The notes beneath the pieces are model-generated. The model had not been told where the DNA came from, ran no database searches, and saw only the letters and a list, made by a program, of their open reading frames with translations. This document shows, in pieces, positions 5,955-18,810 of a DNA stretch of 32,691 nucleotides. Source of the DNA: a virus; IMG/VR virus record IMGVR_UViG_3300045988_068683. One strand, 5' to 3'. The position numbers and the translations under genes are program-made. Numbering within the stretch: position 1 is the stretch's first letter; the number at the start of each line of letters is the position of its first letter.

Positions 5955-6494
5955 TCACACCTCCACCGCGGGCTGCGGAGCCTTCTGATGCTGATAGTGG
6001 CCGACCATGCCGTATGGTTTCACGGCCGCATCGTTCAAGTATTCGAACGACACCTGTCCGATTCGCATGCCGGGTGTCAGCATGATAGGGAAACTGTTCT
6101 CGTTTTTCAGTTCGACGGTGATGGTTCCGATGAATCCGGCGTCGATGAAGCCTGCGGTCACGTGCGTGCAGAGTCCGAGTCGGCCAAGGCTGCTTTTCCC
6201 GTCGAATCGTGCCATCATGTTGTCCGGGAGGCTGATTTTCTCCACGGTGGCACCTAGCACGAACTGTCCGGGCTGTAGCATGTAGCAATCGTCGATTTTG
6301 ACGGGTTTGGTGTATACGCCGTGCAGCGTGTGGTCGCCGCCGTCCGCGTAACCGTCTTCCATATCCTTGGCGTAGACGATTATGGTGTCCTGCAAGGTCA
6401 CGTCATACGAGTTGGGGTTCAACTGTTTTTCCGTGTATGGCAGGATGAGGTCTTGATGGTCCACGCACTGTTCGATGGTGATGTCGTTCAGCAT
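5955..6494 (-). CDS. dcd: dCTP deaminase (dUTPase-superfamily)
   Basis: 179 aa. GKSSLGRLGLCTHVTAGFIDAGFIGTITVELKN is the Dcd signature region. Confidence 0.8.
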   Translation of the reverse strand: MLNDITIEQCVDHQDLILPYTEKQLNPNSYDVTLQDTIIVYAKDMEDGYADGGDHTLHGVYTKPVKIDDCYMLQPGQFVLGATVEKISLPDNMMARFDGKSSLGRLGLCTHVTAGFIDAGFIGTITVELKNENSFPIMLTPGMRIGQVSFEYLNDAAVKPYGMVGHYQHQKAPQPAVEV

Positions 6495-11312: not shown

Positions 11313-11786
11313 TCAGTTGAATTCTTCTGTGAGGGAGGGGCGTGGGAGGGGGGCGGCTGTCTTGCCGTCATCATCCATCACGGTTGTGAGTCCAAGCAGA
11401 TGGATTAGACCATAACGCCGATAGTATGTTTCGAAGCTGCCCACCTGCTGGGCCGCGGCCGCTGGATACGTGTAGCTGCTGCTGACCGCTTCGCCTTGCT
11501 TAACCATGTCCATGAGGTTTTCGCCCTCATGCGTGGCTTCGTAGACGGCGATTGTGAGCGTGTTGTACACGGTTGGCATGTCAGTGTCGGCGCCGACTAT
11601 CTCGCTTGAGCAGACGGCTGTCCAGCCTAGGCCATGTTCTTCCATGCTGCTCTTGACAAGCTGCCAAACGTCAACCAGCGTGGCGTACTTGTAGCCGTAC
11701 CCCTCAGTCGTGCGCTTCACCGCTTCCACGGACTGCTGCACTTCCGCGATTCTGCTGAACACGTCGTGCCGTTTATCGTTCGCCAT
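11313..11786 (-). CDS. ERF-family single-strand annealing protein
   Basis: GYGYKYATLVDVWQLVKSSMEEHGL and YYRRYGLIHLLGL resemble ERF motifs. Confidence 0.6.
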   Translation of the reverse strand: MANDKRHDVFSRIAEVQQSVEAVKRTTEGYGYKYATLVDVWQLVKSSMEEHGLGWTAVCSSEIVGADTDMPTVYNTLTIAVYEATHEGENLMDMVKQGEAVSSSYTYPAAAAQQVGSFETYYRRYGLIHLLGLTTVMDDDGKTAAPLPRPSLTEEFN

Positions 11787-12159
11787 TATTGTTCCTCCTT
11801 TTTTCGAGTTCGTTTTCGATAAGCGTTTCGTCTATCGCAAGCCTATACGCGCGTTCCACAATATCATCGAAGTCGCACTGGGTGTGGGGGGTGTGTTCGT
11901 TGATTGCGTATCGGGCTATGGTGGCAAGGTTCTTGCCGTCCGGGTTCGCCTTATACGCGTCGATGCGGCTCTGCCACACGTCGTGTCGCCCTTGCAGCCA
12001 TGCCTCAAGCGCTTTCTGATAGTCCTTTGCCGCGAACGGGATTGCCAAGTCGTATACGATTATGGCGGTTATCACGTCAACCCCGGCTTCAAGCGCCCTG
12101 TCGGGCAGCATGGTTAGGAATGTTTCGACTCTGGCGGGAAAGTATTCCGAAGGCTTCAT
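11773..12159 (-). CDS. Hypothetical protein, first gene of the middle operon
   Basis: 128-aa ORF with a GAGGT RBS. It is preceded by the extended -10 element at 12192-12200. Confidence 0.5.
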   Translation of the reverse strand: MKPSEYFPARVETFLTMLPDRALEAGVDVITAIIVYDLAIPFAAKDYQKALEAWLQGRHDVWQSRIDAYKANPDGKNLATIARYAINEHTPHTQCDFDDIVERAYRLAIDETLIENELEKRRNNNGER

Positions 12160-12191: not shown

Positions 12192-12222
12192 ATTATATCA
12201 GGGCGTGCCTTGCGACACGCCC
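12192..12222 (-). promoter_or_regulatory. Extended -10 promoter (TGATATAAT) directly after a GC hairpin
   Basis: The minus strand reads gggcgtg-tcgcaagg-cacgccc then TGATATAAT (plus 12192-12200), about 32 nt before ATG 12159. The hairpin contains the CGACACGCC box. Confidence 0.5.
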
Positions 12223-12229
12223 GAAAAAT

Positions 12230-12727
12230 TCATTTCCAATACATGTTGGACACCCATACGCCACGGGAGAGTTCAATCGGCTCGCCCTCAAGCCACTTGA
12301 GACAGCCGTGGGGGGTTATAAGCGCGACATACCCTTGCCCGTCGAACACTGAATTGTTGTATCCGCTCTCAATCCACGCGTCAACCATGTTGCGGGAGTC
12401 GGACGCGTACGGGCCGACTTCGTACTTCCACGCGATACCGTTGTGCGCCACATAGCCCCTATCCGTGTGGAATGGGTGGCAGTTGCGCGGCTCTACCGCG
12501 CCATGCGTGGCGAGACGGAAGTGAATCAGGCACGGGGCGTCACGCAACTGCTGCCAATGGCTGTAGACGAAGCCAACCACTTTCAGCGGGTCAACGTTCT
12601 TGAAGACCCTCAGGCGCTCGCCATCCCACCAACTGACACCGCCCCCGTCCGGGTTGGCCTCACTCATGGCTAGGATGTCCTCAGGCTCAGGCATGGAGCC
12701 GGGTACTGCTGTCGCAATCACACACAT
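12230..12727 (-). CDS. Stand-alone class-II (Ntn) glutamine amidotransferase domain protein
   Basis: Met-Cys N-terminus (MCVIAT), HFRLATHG and NCHPF. 165 aa. Confidence 0.7.
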   Translation of the reverse strand: MCVIATAVPGSMPEPEDILAMSEANPDGGGVSWWDGERLRVFKNVDPLKVVGFVYSHWQQLRDAPCLIHFRLATHGAVEPRNCHPFHTDRGYVAHNGIAWKYEVGPYASDSRNMVDAWIESGYNNSVFDGQGYVALITPHGCLKWLEGEPIELSRGVWVSNMYWK

Positions 12728-12748
12728 TTTATTATTCTTCCTTAATGG

Positions 12749-12773
12749 CGGGGGCGGGACGTTCCCGCCCCCG
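12749..12773 (-). promoter_or_regulatory. GC-rich intercistronic hairpin (11-bp stem, no U-tract)
   Basis: cgggggcggga (12749-12759) pairs with tcccgcccccg (12763-12773). It lies between the amidoligase stop and the GATase RBS. Confidence 0.6.
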
Positions 12774-12784
12774 AAGATTGGTTG

Positions 12785-14422
12785 TCAGGCGTTGCCCCGC
12801 GTGGCTGCGATATGCTTGCGGATACGCACGTAACGTTCGGACAGTTCGGGGCGTCCCGCACGCTTGAGCATGCGCAACGCGGTGCGTTCCAGCGGTTCGG
12901 CCACCGGCTTGCCGTGGGACGCGCGTGCGATACGGCTGCGAACAATGTTCGCGGCCACGCGCTGGGCGGTGTCGCCATGTCGGCCGACGTACTCGAACCC
13001 GTTCCAAATGTTGTCGCCACTGTGCGCGTGGTACAAGTGGAAGAAGTCAAGAATCGGGGACTTGTCGCCCGCCTCAACCATAGCCGTAGCCATCTGCACG
13101 TAGCGGTGCAGCGGCCGCAGATTACGGGACGGGAGCGCGTAGCAGAGTTCGGGGGCCAGCAGGCGTTCCTCGACGCGCTTGCGGCCACGCTCACGGCGCT
13201 CCTCATGCCTGCGGTATTCGGTGGCAGCGGGGAGCGTGTCGCCATGACCACGACGCGCCTTGCGGGACGCCTTCACGTTGAACACGACACGACGGCGGAT
13301 TTCGTCCGCGCGTTCCTTACGCTCACATTCCTCTTGCATCTTCATGGCGGCCTTGACACGACGTGCCGCGTCGAGCCGTTCGGCGAGCGTGCGACGGGGC
13401 GCGTCGAGCACGTTATCGGCCATGCACGAAGAGTACTGTTCGATGAGAGCAGCCGTCACCGTGCCGCGGGGGTGCCTTTCGAAGAAGCGCCACATGGCGC
13501 GCACCCACTTGACGGCCGGGATAAGCTTATGGGCGCTGCCCGCATACCAACAGTCGAACGTACGCAGCTCGATAGTGTCCGCATGCTCGTCGTTGACGGC
13601 AGTGTGCTTGCCCGTGTACTCGCCATGAGTGAGGGAGCACCAATAATCATCGTCAACGTGGCGCATGTTGAGCAGACTGCACTGGGACGCGCTCAGCCCG
13701 TGCAGCGCCCAATACCACCGGCTAGCGCATTGGTTGCCCGTGCGGGCCACGTGGATATGCCCGCCCGCGTTCTCGCCGTATTCCGGGATGCCCTCGACGA
13801 TACGCTTCAAGGCGGGCAGTTTGGACATGTCGAGGATATTGGACTGCAATTCCGCCCCGTTGTGTTCTAGCGACGGGTCCTTGTCCCAACCGGCAATGAC
13901 GGCAGAGTCCGCGACTGCTTCCACGAAATCATCGGACAAGTCGGACTCAAGTTCAATCTCGACGCCGAAAGTGAATTGATTGCCGTCACCGAACGCGTAC
14001 GGGTAGATATAAGAGGGTTCCTTGCCGTTCATGAACGCTTCAGCGTCACGGTGGCGCGGGCAATAGTAGCCGTCGTACATGCCGCCCCTGCAGTGCTCGC
14101 ACAGCACGGCACAGCAATCGTAGACGTCACACGAATAGTACTCGCCACTGTCCGGGTCAATCGGCGTGCCGCATTGCGCGCACCAATAGTCCTCGTCTTC
14201 GAAGTCCCTCGCGTTGCTCACGCGTCGCATTCCGTCGCCGTTGGCGAAACACACGTACAGCTCGTCGCCGATTGCCACGCATTGCGTGTCACCTTCCGGC
14301 CACTGGGCGCGATACGCCTTGAAGAGGCGTTGCGCTTTGCCGTCGCGTTCAATCCAGTCGGCGTACGGTTCACCGCCCATGATTGCGATTCTGTCAGCCA
14401 TTGTTACCACTACTCCCTTCAT
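12785..14422 (-). CDS. GS/GCS2-like amidoligase (Amidoligase_2-type) with a Cys-rich N-terminal region and a long basic C-terminal extension
   Basis: FGVEIELES, HNGAELQS, GGHIHV and TIELRTF form the core. The N-terminal part has CAQCGTP...CCAVLCEHC...YYCPRH. An alternative start is ATG 14401 (MADRIAIMGG). Confidence 0.7.
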   Translation of the reverse strand: MKGVVVTMADRIAIMGGEPYADWIERDGKAQRLFKAYRAQWPEGDTQCVAIGDELYVCFANGDGMRRVSNARDFEDEDYWCAQCGTPIDPDSGEYYSCDVYDCCAVLCEHCRGGMYDGYYCPRHRDAEAFMNGKEPSYIYPYAFGDGNQFTFGVEIELESDLSDDFVEAVADSAVIAGWDKDPSLEHNGAELQSNILDMSKLPALKRIVEGIPEYGENAGGHIHVARTGNQCASRWYWALHGLSASQCSLLNMRHVDDDYWCSLTHGEYTGKHTAVNDEHADTIELRTFDCWYAGSAHKLIPAVKWVRAMWRFFERHPRGTVTAALIEQYSSCMADNVLDAPRRTLAERLDAARRVKAAMKMQEECERKERADEIRRRVVFNVKASRKARRGHGDTLPAATEYRRHEERRERGRKRVEERLLAPELCYALPSRNLRPLHRYVQMATAMVEAGDKSPILDFFHLYHAHSGDNIWNGFEYVGRHGDTAQRVAANIVRSRIARASHGKPVAEPLERTALRMLKRAGRPELSERYVRIRKHIAATRGNA

Positions 14423-14442
14423 AGAATGGCCGATATGTTTTC

Positions 14443-14475
14443 GTGCCCTTGCGGGACTCGAACCCGCATGTGTGC
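14443..14475 (-). other. tRNA 3'-half-like element (T-arm plus acceptor 3' strand). Not a complete tRNA.
   Basis: The minus strand reads gcggg-TTCGAGT-cccgc-aagggca-c, a canonical T-stem/T-loop. No D-arm or anticodon arm can be built upstream. Confidence 0.4.
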
Positions 14476-14491
14476 CGCTAGGGCTGGGCAG

Positions 14492-14739: not shown

Positions 14740-14780
14740 AGTATACCACTCTGTATACTGTTGCCAATGTCGGCGTGTCG
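14740..14780 (-). promoter_or_regulatory. Early promoter P1 with upstream CGACACGCC box
   Basis: The minus strand reads CGACACGCC (14772-14780), TTGGCA (14762-14767), 16 nt, TATACT (14740-14745). The palindrome agtatac-N6-gtatact overlaps the -10. Confidence 0.55.
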
Positions 14781-15432: not shown

Positions 15433-15636
15433 CAATACCAACAAACCACATGAACCAAGTCAATAAATGAACCACGTTAACAAGTCAACACGGTTAACAT
15501 ATAAACCGCGTCAATAAATGAACCACGTTAACCAATGAACACGGTTAACACATGAACGAGGTTAAGACATGAACCACGTTAACAAGTCAACGCGGTTAAC
15601 ACATGAACCCGGTAAACCAATTAACCCGGCAAACAC
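15433..15636. repeat. Array of 12 tandem degenerate 17-bp repeats (three well-conserved 51-bp super-units). Putative iterons or a protein-binding array.
   Basis: ATGAACCACGTTAAC recurs at 15467, 15518 and 15569, exactly 51 bp apart. ATGAAC recurs at 17-bp multiples, and GTTAAC palindromes are embedded in the units. Confidence 0.85.
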
Positions 15637-16280: not shown

Positions 16281-16451
16281 ATGTAGGATGTAGGTGTAGG
16301 TAATAGGGGTATTAGGATTTTTTTTCGGGACTATTTATATATATATACGCGCGCGCGCGTACCGCCGTCGGGATGCGGATGTCGGGTCGAGTCGAAAAAT
16401 GCAAAAAAAAAAAATCCCAGAACACCCACTTACATTTCCTACATCCTACAT
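16281..16451. repeat. 14-bp perfect inverted repeat flanking an AT-rich, alternating purine-pyrimidine and poly-A core
   Basis: atgtaggatgtagg (16281-16294) pairs with cctacatcctacat (16438-16451). Inside are T8 (16318-16325), (TA)n(CG)n over 26 nt (16336-16361) and A12 (16403-16414). Confidence 0.8.
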
Positions 16452-16554
16452 TTCCTGTGGAAACCAACGATTTCCGACACGCCGTAGGAGAAGGCTCGTA
16501 GCGAGTGTGCTAGGATTGAACCTGTTGAAATCAACTATACCACAGGAGAAGACC

Positions 16555-18810
16555 ATGAGCCACACCTTCCACAAACCGCAAGACCCACCCACACTCGACA
16601 TCAGGCCATACAGGAACATCCCCAACGGCCTAGCCCGCGAAGTCAACGGCCTCACCATGGCCGCACAGACCAGCGAGTACACGTTCACCGACGCGCGACT
16701 CCAAACCATAGCCATGCCCGTCATGGACGGCACCGGCAAGCCACGCTGGGACGACGCCTACTACGACGCCTTCTGGTCGCTCAGAAACGGCGACCTGCGC
16801 CTCAGCGAAGACGGCGACACCATGTACACCCGCGACACCAACTGGCTCGGCGGAGACATGCCCAACACGTGGCATCCAATCAGCAGCCTAGCCGAAGAAT
16901 TCGGCTTCCCCACCGGAAACCACGCCGTCCGCAACCTCGAACCCATGTTCCGCGCCGAAACCCTCAAACTCCCCCGCCTCACACGCGGAATGCTGTTCGG
17001 CAACACCGCCTTCCACCCGCAAGGCAAACACACCGTCACGGTCGAAGAGGCCGACGAAAACGGCGCATACCTGTACGTGGACAACAGCCCATGGCTGAAC
17101 GACGGCAAGAAAACCGCCGAACTCGTCGAACAGGCCAACAAGTTCATCGCCCAACTCACCGCCGACGACGCGAGCCGCGAAAACCTCCTCCGCATGTTCG
17201 CCACCCCCTTCCTCGAACCGTACAAGCATCTCTTCTACGTGTTCTACGGACACGGCGGCGACGGCAAAAGCTTCCTCCTCGGACGATTGGGCGACGCCTA
17301 CCCCGACAAGGCCAGCGGCATCGGCATCAAAGCCCTCAACTCTCCCAGCGTGTTCGAAAGCGGCAACGAGGCGTTGAAACTCGACGGCCGCTACTGGGTG
17401 TACGACGAGGAAGGCGACATGCTCACCGACAAGGACATGGGCATCATCAAACGCATCGCCACCGGCGACACCATCCACGCCCGCGGCGTCGGCCGCAACA
17501 GCGTCAACGTGCGCCCGCAGGCCACGCTCGTCATCGCAAGCAACCATCCATTGGCGACCAGCAACGGCGACGCCAACATGCGTCGCCTCGTGCCCGTCAT
17601 GTTCTCCGGCCGCAAAACCCCGCAGCAGATGCAACCATTGGCCGACTTCATCGACGAGTACGGCATGACCCCGTTCATGCTTGCGAGCGCCATCCTCTGG
17701 GCCGACAAGCCGTTGGACGACGACATCCACCGCGACATCAGCTTCAACAACTCAGAGCAGGAGCTGGACGAACGCACCATGTGGATAGTCAACGAAATCT
17801 GCGAGAACGGCTACGCCGACACGCGCCTCTGCCCATACCCCGGCCACGTCAGCGGCGACATGTACAAGATGCTCGGCGTCGGACTGCGCAGCAAGCGCAT
17901 CGACGGGAAAGTCTGCTCCGTCCGCGTAGTCATCGACGAAGACCGTTTCGCCCCCTACCGCGAACGCTACGAGCAGGAACTGAACGAAACCCGCCTCCCC
18001 CTGCTCGAAGACCTGCCCGTGCCCGAAATCCAGACCGACATGGAACGGCGTGTCACCGAAGACGGCGAAATCGTCAACGTCAAAGCGCCCGAAGGCTTCA
18101 AATTCCACAAGGAGCCGACCGACCCGGCCAATCCGAAAGCCGTCCGCAACTGGAAGAACGGCAAGCAGGAGGATGTCGTGGAAATCGGCGCGGGCGACGT
18201 GTACGCCGTCATCCCGCAACCCGGCAGCATCATCATCGACATGGACGCGCCCAAGGACGACCACAGTCGCCACGGATACGACATCCTCCGTCCCATGCTC
18301 GAACCCACCCTCATGGTGCACACGCCGACGCACGGCGGCATCCACGCCTACTACCGGCTTCCAGAAGGCTGGACAGGCAAGCTCAAGAACACCAACCATG
18401 CGGACGGCATCCCCGTGGACGTGAAGGTGGACGGGCGCGGATACGTGCTCGGCGCCGGTTCCAACATCGAAGGCGTCGGCTTCTACCGGCTGGTAGGCGA
18501 CGAGACCGACGTGCAGGAGGCGCCAATCGGACTGCTCAACTGGCTCGTCGGACATGGCTACGGCGTCAAACCCATGCCGAAACCGGCCGCAGCCAAGGAG
18601 CGCTCGCCGCGCGACGGACGCCCCGACCTCACGCCGGTGCCCGAAGGACGCCGCAACGACACGCTCTACAGGTGGGCTTGGGGACGCCTCCACAACCATG
18701 AGGACAACGAAGCCAACATCCACGACGAACTCGTGCTCCGCGGCCACGTCAGCGGACTCGGAGACACCGAAATCGAACGCATCTGGCAGAGCGTGAAGGA
18801 AACCGCATGA
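16555..18810 (+). CDS. Replicase: D5/P4-type SF3 helicase (N-terminal half) fused to AEP prim-pol plus PriCT-1 (C-terminal half)
   Basis: Start is ATG 16555 after AGGAGA. Walker A is YGHGGDGKS, with DEEGD and VIASNHP motifs. These are followed by IIIDMDAP, HGGIHAYY and VDVKVDGRGYVLGAGS (AEP motifs I-III), and PEGRRNDTLYRWAWG (PriCT). Confidence 0.8.
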   Translation: MSHTFHKPQDPPTLDIRPYRNIPNGLAREVNGLTMAAQTSEYTFTDARLQTIAMPVMDGTGKPRWDDAYYDAFWSLRNGDLRLSEDGDTMYTRDTNWLGGDMPNTWHPISSLAEEFGFPTGNHAVRNLEPMFRAETLKLPRLTRGMLFGNTAFHPQGKHTVTVEEADENGAYLYVDNSPWLNDGKKTAELVEQANKFIAQLTADDASRENLLRMFATPFLEPYKHLFYVFYGHGGDGKSFLLGRLGDAYPDKASGIGIKALNSPSVFESGNEALKLDGRYWVYDEEGDMLTDKDMGIIKRIATGDTIHARGVGRNSVNVRPQATLVIASNHPLATSNGDANMRRLVPVMFSGRKTPQQMQPLADFIDEYGMTPFMLASAILWADKPLDDDIHRDISFNNSEQELDERTMWIVNEICENGYADTRLCPYPGHVSGDMYKMLGVGLRSKRIDGKVCSVRVVIDEDRFAPYRERYEQELNETRLPLLEDLPVPEIQTDMERRVTEDGEIVNVKAPEGFKFHKEPTDPANPKAVRNWKNGKQEDVVEIGAGDVYAVIPQPGSIIIDMDAPKDDHSRHGYDILRPMLEPTLMVHTPTHGGIHAYYRLPEGWTGKLKNTNHADGIPVDVKVDGRGYVLGAGSNIEGVGFYRLVGDETDVQEAPIGLLNWLVGHGYGVKPMPKPAAAKERSPRDGRPDLTPVPEGRRNDTLYRWAWGRLHNHEDNEANIHDELVLRGHVSGLGDTEIERIWQSVKETA

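Follow-up and report, generated by a model that had tools for sequence, protein, structure and literature searches.

What an amidoligase and a glutamine amidotransferase (GATase) do together for a phage is the question raised by two adjacent genes of a Bifidobacterium siphophage (IMG/VR record IMGVR_UViG_3300045988_068683), within a stretch of 32,691 nt that as a whole is called the window here. Amidoligase–GATase pairs were predicted by comparative genomics in 2009 (Iyer et al., 2009, Mol Biosyst 5:1636), and their annotation now extends to hundreds of phages, whose hosts include Pseudomonas, Escherichia, Vibrio, Mycobacterium and marine OM43 bacteria. The present pair is a divergent variant of this known, widely annotated pairing and is less novel than the initial annotation of the window implied. 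No substrate or phenotype was found in the literature searched for any phage amidoligase–GATase pair, in line with the statement in that annotation that phage members have no assigned substrate.

Genes and strand

Both ORFs proposed in the initial annotation, of 165 and 545 aa, were recovered with exactly its coordinates and lengths (Table 1), and every motif quoted there was located: MCVIAT (aa 1–6), HFRLATHG (69–76) and NCHPF (82–86) in the GATase, and the Cys-rich run CAQCGTP...CCAVLCEHC...YYCPRH (81–124), FGVEIELES (152–160), HNGAELQS (187–194), GGHIHV (220–225) and TIELRTF (283–289) in the ligase. The strand, absent from the annotation, is minus for both ORFs, so the ligase is transcribed ahead of the GATase. 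The true start of the ligase is probably the ATG at 14401, since an identical database protein (P0001) and all homologues open with MA[DE]RIAIM. Hundreds of database proteins are homologous to each gene and dN/dS values lie between 0.12 and 0.31 against 29–33 related phage loci; the ORF pair is therefore not due to chance.

Table 1. Features of the ligase–GATase locus and its surroundings, with positions in the window
Feature	Position	Strand	Details or basis
Nearest upstream promoter-like site	14740–14767	minus	TTGGCA-16-TATACT with TG; consensus match only
T-arm-like hairpin GCGGGTTCGAGTCCCGC (GCGGG-TTCGAGT-CCCGC)	14451–14467	minus	Upstream of the ligase gene, within a gap of 69 nt
Ligase gene	12785–14401; longest ORF to 14422	minus	ORF call; 538 aa from M8, 545 aa longest
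Ligase domain order	12785–14401	minus	N-terminal region, two-zinc finger, GS-fold amidoligase core, basic C-terminal domain
Cys-rich two-zinc finger	14051–14182 (aa 81–124)	minus	Seven Cys invariant or nearly so in 33 homologues
GS-fold amidoligase core	13418–13981 (aa 148–335)	minus	Invariant columns, hhalign, Foldseek, dN/dS 0.128
Ligase core key residues	within 13418–13981	minus	G153-E155-E157, D182/S184, E191, H222/H224, R254, K272/N277, E285/R287
Basic C-terminal domain	12788–13417 (aa 336–545)	minus	pI 10.8; phage forms only
Duplicated motif R..V..N[IV]..S[RK].AR.[SG]HG, copy 1	13241–13297 (aa 376–394)	minus	Homologue alignment
Duplicated motif, copy 2	12911–12967 (aa 486–504)	minus	Homologue alignment
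Intercistronic GC hairpin	12749–12773	minus	11-bp stem, 3-nt loop, about -25 kcal/mol, without U tail
GATase gene	12230–12727	minus	ORF call; 165 aa, predicted stand-alone class-II (Ntn) amidohydrolase
GATase key residues	within 12230–12727	minus	Cys2, D27-G28, R71, N96-G97, D110
9-bp hairpin GGGCGTGTC/GGCACGCCC and TGATATAAT	12201–12222; 12192–12200	minus	3' of the GATase stop
dCTP deaminase	5955–6494	same transcription direction as the pair	5.7 kb downstream

Catalytic core of the ligase

The 545-aa ligase had no match in Pfam, PHROG, NCBIfam or PADLOC. It scored below the Pfam gathering threshold for PF12224 (Amidoligase_2), outside the family by direct score, and at E ≤ 1 neither the ligase nor any of ten homologues, the most distant about 40 % identical, matched this model. 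Despite these failed scans, profile–profile comparison, the core of the AlphaFold model and Foldseek all agreed with the GS-like amidoligase of the initial annotation, and the core belongs to the glutamine-synthetase (GS)-fold Amidoligase_2 group as a very divergent member. A profile of the 33-sequence ligase family, compared by hhalign with 10 annotated phage amidoligases (nine of them matching PF12224), gave probabilities of 88.6 % (E=2.7e-6, 75 columns) and 90.6 % (E=1.3e-6, 163 columns), and the catalytic motifs were all collinear with those of the reference proteins. Within the model (mean pLDDT 76 over the whole protein) the core exceeded 90 along most of its length. Glutamine synthetases made up 49 of the 50 PDB matches listed by Foldseek (best E=3.6e-5), and in BFVD 40 viral proteins were matched at E ≤ 1e-3, down to 5e-10, about half of them named ‘Amidoligase enzyme’. 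The TM-scores were low (0.2–0.5), because the shared core comprises only about 190 of the 545 residues and the rest consists of extra domains. Both hhalign and Foldseek thus provided the match whose absence would have counted against the initial annotation.

The motif set of amidoligases, GxExE, D.SL..G.E, HxH, R, (K/Y)..A.N and ExR, is conserved in the ligase. G153, E155, E157, S184, E191, H222, H224, R254, K272, N277 and R287 are invariant in the homologues and E285 nearly so; in the alignment the conserved residues correspond to G30, E32, E34, S56, E62, H99, H101, R134, Y176, N180, E191 and R193 of the reference, and no obvious counterpart of reference residue E123 was seen. The catalytic residues remain invariant down to 32–40 % identity.

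The GATase

The 165-aa protein is assigned by its sequence to the class-II (Cys1 Ntn) GATases of the GATase_4 (YafJ/EgtC) group, as had been proposed. It is shorter than a typical GATase_4 domain and matched Pfam GATase_4 (PF13230) above threshold (E=3.4e-7, 29.9 bits, cut-off 23), and a chromosomal Bifidobacterium homologue reached 39.7 bits. The family profile matched solved structures in the PDB, namely 3mdn (4e-7), the GlmS N-domain (1.8e-5) and PurF, and the best NCBIfam match was EgtC (E=6.3e-7), whose 29 bits lie far under the cut-off of 218.65. Conservation of the proposed catalytic residues was borne out here as in the ligase, the N-terminal Met-Cys being kept in 41 of 42 complete homologues; the sole exception is L054, a locus from which the ligase is deleted. 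R71 (in HFRLATHG) and N96-G97 (in AHNGI) line up with the equivalent residues of GlmS and 3mdn, D110 (in SDSR) is conserved, and the Gln-binding and oxyanion motifs occur in nearly all homologues. The AlphaFold model of this protein is unreliable (mean pLDDT 52.6, residues 73–165 below 50), so its putative four-layer αββα Ntn fold is read from alignments. The protein keeps the residues for holding glutamine or a γ-glutamyl moiety, and these fit glutamine hydrolysis, with supply of ammonia, just as well as hydrolysis of γ-glutamyl-X.

Domains outside the ligase core

The candidate zinc ligands of the finger are C81, C84, C98, C103, C108, C111, C121 and perhaps H124. The number of CxxC units differs among homologues, and the ligase family profile weakly matches PHD, RING and FYVE fingers in the PDB (E about 2e-4). 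The C-terminal domain is modelled as long Arg/Glu-rich helices followed by a small α/β part (pLDDT 50–90), and no relative of it was found among PDB sequences. It is missing from the chromosomal Bifidobacterium homologues and confined to phage forms, and N47, A54, R55 and H58 (C-domain numbering), which belong to the first copy of its duplicated motif, are invariant in 12 homologues.

Linkage, selection and loss in culture

The ligase gene is followed on the same strand by an adjacent GATase gene in 34 of 34 related IMG/VR loci and in all six loci from Bifidobacterium genomes. The same order was found in Mycobacterium phage Tesla, a freshwater podophage (L057) and a human-gut phage (L058). Linkage is strict and near 1:1, with co-occurrence of the two genes almost without exception; in locus L054, which has lost the ligase by deletion, the Cys of the GATase is missing as well. 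In the chromosomal Bifidobacterium elements the pair forms the first gene set, adjoining a divergent gene with a weak HTH-like Pfam match (E=0.0075), and lies near an integrase and a toxin–antitoxin pair.

Against the 29–33 related phage loci, from about 30 divergent genomes, dN/dS was 0.128 for the ligase core and 0.119 for the GATase; purifying selection on these catalytic parts is strong. The zinc-finger N-domain (0.279) and the C-domain (0.312) evolve about 2.5 times faster, similar to small early proteins.

The ligase is broken by an in-frame stop, frameshift or deletion in eight of eight cultured relatives, in which the GATase is intact: it is split by a stop codon in BA720P3, frameshifted in BP677P1-8 and deleted in BP742P1. 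Since all eight carry an interrupted gene, the ligase looks dispensable in culture; its inactivation is common in cultured phages and the gene could be costly or decaying. Four of the 34 viral contigs have interrupted ligases too, and intact ones have so far come only from metagenome contigs. These losses could be read as the mark of a functionless remnant whose ORFs are conserved by descent only. That reading is barely tenable and largely refuted by the constraint on the catalytic parts across divergent genomes, by catalytic residues that do not change over such distances and by the sharing of the module between Bifidobacterium and Mycobacterium phages. The initial annotation had viewed the pair as an inserted accessory unit. 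Accessory and dispensable it appears to be, but insertion is not supported: the pair occupies the same position in phage L053, which is only 32 % identical, and is therefore old in this lineage.

Flanking elements and gene neighbourhood

The three elements said to set the pair off, a T-arm-like hairpin, a GC hairpin and a hairpin with a promoter, were all located. No tRNA was predicted at the T-arm-like hairpin by ARAGORN or Rfam. In 12 of 34 related viral loci an identical sequence precedes the ligase gene by about 50 nt, and L046 has a compensated variant. The intercistronic GC hairpin was found in most related phage loci, and when 19 sequences were aligned one of its pairs covaried (GC<->UA); an unrelated 14-bp stem takes this site in the distant locus L053. 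It may act as a partial terminator, attenuator or mRNA-stability element between the genes. Past the GATase, TGATATAAT is by sequence match a putative extended -10 directly after the 9-bp hairpin and ahead of the next gene (11773–12159). The interval 14423–14491 yielded no promoter-like site, and the nearest upstream one, ahead of a 73-aa ORF, probably also drives the ligase–GATase pair.

Upstream of the pair are three small ORFs, each preceded by a promoter; downstream are Erf, SSB, VRR-NUC, a RecE-like exonuclease and an SNF2 helicase. The gene termed ‘MazG-like’ in the initial annotation matched only DUF6378. That annotation had kept open a role in nucleotide or DNA modification. Amidoligase and amidotransferase Pfam domains do co-occur with thymidine-hypermodification genes on viral metagenome contigs, and a dCTP deaminase is transcribed in the same direction as the pair. 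The gene content nevertheless lends this option no support: minus-strand early genes between 5316 and 15352 were searched against Pfam, and the ten nearest neighbours also against PHROG, and none of the enzymes that start hypermodification pathways (dUMP/dCMP hydroxymethylase, 5-HMUDK, aGPT-Pplase, TET/JBP or DpdA) was found among them. The pair is also present in the chromosomal Bifidobacterium elements, where no replication or nucleotide genes lie near it, and the cultured relatives still propagate with a broken ligase. DNA modification by the pair is unlikely, and we give very little credence to a decorated base that evades restriction.

Relatives in other phages

The closest comparison outside the related loci is with the module of phage Tesla (Marvinvirus), gp108 (453 aa) followed by gp109 (299 aa); each carries the annotation ‘glutamine amidotransferase domain protein’. 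The zinc finger and whole core of gp108 align with the ligase (hhalign 98 %, E=2.4e-13, 212 columns; Foldseek E=1.2e-9), and gp109 aligns with the GATase from Met-Cys on (98.3 %, E=1.3e-14). Order, strand and adjacency are the same, the genes likewise lie among small genes of unknown function, and both hosts are actinobacterial. Identity is about 21–33 %, however, gp108 has neither the basic C-domain nor the duplicated motif, and the C-terminus of gp109 is longer.

Multi-ligase cassettes of LUZ24-like and Kuravirus phages were predicted by Iyer et al. (2009). Those of UFV-P2 (Pseudomonas, LUZ24-like) and XT18 (Escherichia, Kuravirus) comprise a COOH-NH2 ligase, Amidoligase_2, GAT-II, a RimK-type ATP-grasp enzyme and AIG2/γ-glutamyl-cyclotransferase. 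As in the Bifidobacterium phage, a GS-fold amidoligase with collinear motifs adjoins a class-II GATase among early genes. The Bifidobacterium-phage pair differs in having two genes only, with a GATase of 165 aa rather than 486–560 aa and a ligase that carries a zinc finger and basic C-domain and is missed by PF12224 and any PHROG. No COOH-NH2 ligase, ATP-grasp or AIG2 gene was detected among the early genes between 5316 and 15352 (Pfam) or the ten nearest neighbours (PHROG).

The class-II glutamine residues kept by the GATase (Cys1, R71, N96-G97 and D110) and the strict, near 1:1 linkage would also suit glutamine-dependent amidation of a cell-envelope precursor or small carboxylate, in which ammonia from the GATase would pass to the ligase and an altered receptor or wall could exclude superinfection. 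This role, which would follow the logic of MurT/GatD, AsnB and NadE, we consider possible but doubtful. In MurT/GatD (PMC3267633) an ATP-dependent ligase and a stand-alone glutaminase likewise amidate a carboxylate, but MurT is folded like the Mur ligases and GatD belongs to the class-I (triad) GATases, so that the folds are unrelated. According to two citing papers, Iyer et al. (2009) proposed that the phiEco32 system modifies the cell wall and excludes superinfection, a proposal that favours envelope amidation. For an enzyme acting on small molecules, the zinc finger and the basic, fast-evolving domain of 200 aa are unusual. To our knowledge, moreover, known class-II amidotransferases carry the GATase as an N-terminal fusion to the synthase domain, and of the stand-alone GATase_4 enzymes just one has been characterised, EgtC, a γ-glutamyl hydrolase; both points argue against amidation by ammonia transfer. 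So does AIG2, which is no ammonia source and is reported beside amidoligase genes in other phages: in reports on Arthrobacter phages and Clostridium prophages the two are listed together, with the presence of a GATase unstated. If AIG2 is able to replace the GATase, the role of the partner would be cleavage of a γ-glutamyl amide, not ammonia supply.

EgtA (GCS2)/EgtC (class-II GATase) and PuuA (GS-like)/PuuD are cellular pairs of a γ-glutamyl ligase and a hydrolase. They resemble the phage pair in their GS-fold, ATP-dependent ligase and in an amidohydrolase that later strips the glutamyl group. They differ in their small-molecule targets and intervening pathway enzymes, which are unlinked here, and show no sequence-level orthology. 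The nearest characterised folds being glutamine synthetase and γ-glutamyl-amine or γ-glutamyl-cysteine ligases, the pair might make or turn over a small γ-glutamyl or peptide metabolite, as an auxiliary nitrogen or amino-acid function or a secondary metabolite with no macromolecular target. Papers on OM43 phages and a Planctomycetes phage call such pairs auxiliary metabolic genes (nitrogen/amino-acid), a proposal based on annotation alone. We think a metabolite product rather improbable, as the pair is among the earliest genes, near the repressor/promoter region and away from metabolic genes, and its targeting-type domains evolve fast; loss of the ligase in culture without loss of viability also speaks against it, though it would equally fit a metabolic accessory gene.

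Proposed role of the pair

The pair is an early-transcribed accessory two-enzyme module, as its placement after three promoter-preceded small ORFs and the broken ligases of cultured relatives suggest. Our preferred reading, held with moderate confidence, is that early in infection the pair modifies a host macromolecule through ATP-dependent formation of γ-glutamyl-type amides, for host takeover or counter-defence. The ligase, a predicted ATP-dependent carboxylate–amine ligase of GS fold and far-diverged Amidoligase_2 relative, would by analogy activate a carboxylate as acyl-phosphate at a two-metal site (GxExE, E, HxH, ExR) and then join an amine. Both enzymes may act on one γ-glutamyl-type amide bond, to which the ATP-grasp and AIG2 genes of the UFV-P2/XT18 cassettes and the amidoligase–AIG2 listings elsewhere point. 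The ligase would write the amide onto a host macromolecule, most likely a protein, with the zinc finger and basic C-domain as fast-evolving target adaptors; the contrast between these domains and the constrained catalytic parts, and the variable CxxC number, are consistent with such a target. The Ntn enzyme would preferably trim or reverse the adduct, or else supply ammonia from glutamine. Against this mechanism, ligation and hydrolysis of one bond by the products of a single operon would amount to a futile cycle, unless the two activities differ in timing or target or a further step lies between them, and no candidate substrate gene is linked to the pair.

PafA and Dop of Actinobacteria show how similar chemistry is used on proteins: the GS/GCS2-fold Pup ligase makes γ-glutamyl-lysine isopeptides and has a paired deamidase/depupylase. 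In both cases a GS-fold ligase and an amidase would act on the same Gln/Glu, and the host phylum is the same, but the partner here is an Ntn GATase and not a PafA paralogue. Neither a gene for a Pup-like tag nor a conserved tag-like neighbour of the pair was seen. PafA and Dop are absent from the 50 PDB matches listed for the ligase, whose chemistry may nonetheless be PafA-like. Tentatively, and by analogy, the pair could form a phage protein-tagging system of writer (GS-fold ligase) and editor (Ntn amidase), PafA/Dop-like in function and built from different parts. Guided by the zinc finger and the C-domain, the ligase would mark a specific host protein, or a factor bound to nucleic acid, with glutamate or a γ-glutamyl-linked group in the first minutes of infection; processing or removal of this mark would fall to the Ntn amidase. 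The system would serve host takeover or the disabling of a defence system in Actinobacteria.

If the target of the preferred host-macromolecule modification is a host protein or defence factor, the pair would represent a new type of enzymatic host takeover in gut Actinobacteria. The Bifidobacterium-phage family shows that the system extends beyond the reach of current models, its ligase being missed by Pfam, PHROGs and NCBIfam, and is the minimal two-gene form of it. The series of broken ligases in cultured human-gut phages makes the target of a phage amidoligase directly testable.

Gene content around the two-gene module

The window is a 32.7-kb contig of the Bifidobacterium phage type, with about 76 % DNA identity to the cultured Bifidobacterium phages BA720P3, BA746P1 and BP677P1-8. 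Both ORFs claimed in the initial annotation, encoding the putative amidoligase (the ligase) and the class-II glutamine amidotransferase (the GATase), were found, and all the motifs quoted for the two proteins are present. Both ORFs lie on the minus strand, and transcription therefore runs leftwards from about 15400. The three immediate-early cassettes described upstream of the pair correspond to three small ORFs with promoter-like sites. For the long gene the most probable start is ATG 14401 (M8, giving 538 aa), as in the identical database protein P0001 and in every homologue.

Features of the amidoligase/GATase module in the window (in leftward order) and in related loci
Feature	Position	Strand	Remarks
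Three small ORFs			Promoter-like site before each; first in leftward order, upstream of 545-aa ORF
T-arm-like hairpin GCGGG-TTCGAGT-CCCGC	14451-14467	-	About 50 nt upstream of ligase start
545-aa ORF (ligase)	12785-14422	-	Next after the three small ORFs
Duplicated C-domain motif R..V..N[IV]..S[RK].AR.[SG]HG	13241-13297; 12911-12967	-	Two copies
Intercistronic 11-bp GC hairpin	12749-12773		Between ligase and GATase genes; no U tail
165-aa ORF (GATase)	12230-12727	-	Directly after 545-aa ORF
Perfect extended -10 TGATATAAT	12192-12200	-	After post-GATase hairpin, before 128-aa ORF and Erf gene
128-aa ORF			Follows 165-aa ORF in leftward order
Erf, gp2.5-like SSB, VRR-NUC, RecE-like exonuclease, SNF2 helicase, DUF6378, dCTP deaminase			After 128-aa ORF
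Ligase interruption sites, cultured relatives	L001 7359-7361; L059 about 2200-2210; L056 2447-3007
Natural deletion variants	L054 1280-2155; L048 928-2073		Ligase-ORF remnants fused to GATase ORF
Chromosomal Bifidobacterium elements with the pair	L012 5521-9663; L015-L020; L052		L012, B. callimiconis

Identification of the amidoligase core

Direct family scans were empty: no relevant match to the ligase was found in Pfam, PHROGs, NCBIfam or PADLOC, and Pfam held nothing relevant for ten remote homologues. A single-sequence search of the PDB gave no match, and a family profile matched PDB entries through the Cys-rich finger only, with none for the core. An exhaustive phmmer run against 1.84 billion cluster representatives retrieved 126 relatives, all in one tight family, none of them linking it to known amidoligases. 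When 33 homologues with identities as low as about 30 % were aligned, a sharply conserved core (aa 148-335) emerged, with the invariant residues G153, E155, E157, A177, G178, S184, E191, G220, G221, H222, H224, R227, R254, K272, N277, H280 and R287.

Comparison of the single sequence with one amidoligase by hhalign was weak (9 % probability), and a reference alignment was therefore built from ten annotated amidoligases of LUZ24-like, Kuravirus, Aeromonas, Vibrio and other phages, nine of which match PF12224 (Pfam Amidoligase_2). Profile-profile comparison of the ligase family with this reference gave 88.6 % probability (E=2.7e-6), or 90.6 % (E=1.3e-6, 163 columns) with a more permissive alignment. 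The motifs GxExE, D.SL..G.E, HxH, R..(N)..C, K/Y..A.N and ExR are collinear between the two groups. The AlphaFold model of the ligase had pLDDT values mostly >90 over the core, and Foldseek placed glutamine synthetases (GS) in 49 of the 50 PDB matches listed (best E=3.6e-5, probability 1.0). Against BFVD it returned 40 viral proteins with E<=1e-3, and roughly half of these bear the name ‘Amidoligase enzyme’. These lines of evidence agree with the GS-like amidoligase proposed in the initial annotation and identify the core as a GS-fold amidoligase missed by current family models. This core has the complete set of metal/ATP motifs.

The GATase

The 165-aa protein had been read as a class-II GATase from its N-terminal Met-Cys and two further motifs, in line with its match to Pfam GATase_4 (29.9 bits against a threshold of 23, E=3.4e-7). 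Its best NCBIfam matches, EgtC and GlmS, were both far under the cut-off. A profile of 18 homologues matched the PDB entries 3mdn (4e-7) and the GlmS glutaminase domain (1.8e-5), and also PurF and 1te5, the last deposited merely as a conserved hypothetical protein. R71 (in HFRLATHG) and N96-G97 (in AHNGI) align with the glutamine-binding Arg and the oxyanion Asn-Gly of solved class-II GATases, and D110 comes next, in SDSR. The Met-Cys start is present in 41 of 42 complete homologues; the sole exception is the viral locus L054, in which the Cys is replaced by Gly and the ligase is deleted. AlphaFold modelled the protein poorly (pLDDT 52.6), so that the fold assignment rests on sequence. On this basis it is classed as a Cys1 Ntn amidase whose pocket for glutamine or a γ-glutamyl group is complete.

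Additional domains of the ligase and selection on the module

The Cys-rich region noted before the core was located at aa 81-124 and contains seven conserved Cys residues which, together with H124 of the window protein, would fit a predicted two-zinc finger. Its profile weakly resembles PHD, RING and FYVE fingers, and the number of CxxC units varies among homologues. The C-domain (aa 336-545) is very basic (pI 10.8), is confined to phage forms of the ligase and was modelled by AlphaFold, with modest confidence, as two long helices and a small α/β unit. It carries a duplicated motif that is kept down to about 20-30 % identity. No significant match to the C-domain profile was found in the PDB; the best, a Cas12f1 segment (...IKHSGDARKGHG...) resembling SR.AR.GHG, had E=0.42 and was treated as chance.

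Median dN/dS was 0.128 for the ligase core (32 loci compared) and 0.119 for the GATase (33 loci), against 0.279 for the N-domain preceding the core (30 loci) and 0.312 for the C-domain (29 loci); the values for Erf and SSB were 0.069 and 0.099, respectively (34 loci each). The chemistry is conserved, with the core and the GATase constrained; in the flanking domains the rate of evolution is about 2.5 times that of the catalytic parts and resembles that of the small early proteins.

Interruptions of the ligase occur in all eight cultured relatives, in each of which the GATase is intact. In BA720P3 and BA746P1 an in-frame stop separates the core from the C-domain. A break within the core, leaving two matching pieces, is common to five BP677P isolates; in BP677P2, the single BP677P isolate examined in detail, it is a +2-nt frameshift. 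BP742P1 has lost the N-domain and core. Among the 34 viral contigs, the ligase is disrupted in four and intact in the other 30. The module is therefore accessory, and lytic growth in the laboratory does not require it. That the pair is a decaying remnant, as these interruptions could be taken to mean, is barely credible.

Linkage and distribution of the pair

IMG/VR and a set with a single genome for each GTDB species were scanned and yielded 34 viral and six genome loci, the latter all from Bifidobacterium species. In each of these loci the ligase is followed directly by the GATase on the same strand. Linkage is not absolute, since the most distant ligase clade (protein P0300, loci L013/L014) lacks the GATase and its adjoining 235-aa gene does not encode one. 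To the initial annotation the pair looked like an inserted accessory unit; recent insertion was rejected, as the module occupies the same position in a phage (L053) that is only 32 % identical. The linkage of the two genes and their early position are established, as is their dispensability in culture.

The chromosomal versions are shorter, with a ligase of about 340 aa (zinc finger and core) and a GATase of about 210 aa, and their genes abut or overlap with no hairpin between them. The pair adjoins a conserved gene that is transcribed divergently and whose only Pfam match, an HTH-like one, is weak (E=0.0075). An integrase of the phage type and a toxin-antitoxin pair (YoeB/YefM) lie nearby, and DUF3846 and many small genes without assignment follow downstream. 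From these neighbours the pair appears to come first in an early operon of an integrated element.

Mycobacterium phage Tesla has the same gene order, its gp108 matching the zinc finger and core of the ligase (98 %, E=2.4e-13) and its gp109 the GATase (98.3 %, E=1.3e-14); the ligase family is common to Bifidobacterium phages and Marvin-type mycobacteriophages. The order also occurs in one freshwater podophage and one human-gut phage. The latter (MT835576, locus L058), which is unrelated to the window, encodes an Amidoligase_2 protein and a short GATase, and directly upstream of them (861-1240) has three canonical T-arm sequences (GGTTCGAATCC), which are probably tRNA genes.

Comparative genomics has already revealed that phages pair a GS-like amidoligase with a class-II GATase, for which later papers cite Iyer et al. 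(2009). The pairing is widely annotated, and one reference amidoligase was matched by 316 phage records. The window family is therefore a divergent variant of a known pairing, not categorically new. It differs in being missed by Pfam and PHROGs, in having two genes only, and in a ligase that combines a zinc finger with a basic C-domain of a new kind.

Possible function of the module

As the initial annotation had stated, no substrate is known to have been assigned in phages: the literature searched contained no experimental or biochemical function, and a 2023 paper says that the functions of such genes ‘remain to be explored’. The ‘amidoligase’ of a paper on Klebsiella fimbriae is an ATP-grasp enzyme and hence irrelevant.

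The ligase would form an acyl-phosphate and then make an amide bond, probably of the γ-glutamyl type. This bond type is suggested by the larger phage cassettes, which add RimK-type and AIG2/γ-glutamyl-cyclotransferase genes to the minimal two-gene form seen in the window, and by other phages in which amidoligase and AIG2 genes are reported together, with the GATase unmentioned. It is also suggested by EgtC, which is a γ-glutamyl hydrolase; no other stand-alone GATase_4 enzyme is known to have been characterised. The fast evolution of the zinc finger and basic domain argues for a macromolecular target. As another role for the pair, a glutamine-dependent reaction that would amidate a carboxylate of the envelope or of a small molecule is unlikely, and a purely metabolic one seems distinctly unlikely. 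Nucleotide or DNA modification had been left open initially, with a dCTP deaminase gene in the neighbourhood; no starter enzyme was found among the early genes scanned, the reading was discarded on that account and we consider it very improbable. That an early γ-glutamyl-type modification is placed on a macromolecule of the host, to be trimmed or erased by the Ntn enzyme, has in our judgement an even chance of being correct. The value of the module is that a natural allelic series in cultured gut phages makes the long-open question of the substrate testable.

Hairpins and signals

Hairpins described upstream of, between and downstream of the two genes were all located, the downstream one closing the unit together with TGATATAAT. 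This extended -10 has no recognisable -35 and is absent from the consensus promoter scan list. The intercistronic GC hairpin recurs in most related phage loci (L021-L049), with one covarying pair (GC<->UA) in a 19-sequence alignment, and at this site the distant locus L053 carries a stem of 14 bp that is unrelated to it. The hairpin may be an attenuator or stability element setting the ratio of the two products.

No tRNA (ARAGORN) or Rfam family was detected at the T-arm-like hairpin and its surroundings. Of the 34 related viral loci, 12 have the element at the corresponding site, and L046 has a compensated stem, GCTGG/CCAGC. Elsewhere in the window, positions 15470-15552 (minus strand) contain two overlapping inverted-repeat copies, AACCGTGTT...GTTAACGTGGTT then CATTTAT. 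They lie in the intergenic region from which the early genes run leftwards and the primase-polymerase gene (16399-18810) runs rightwards, and could be operators or an origin.
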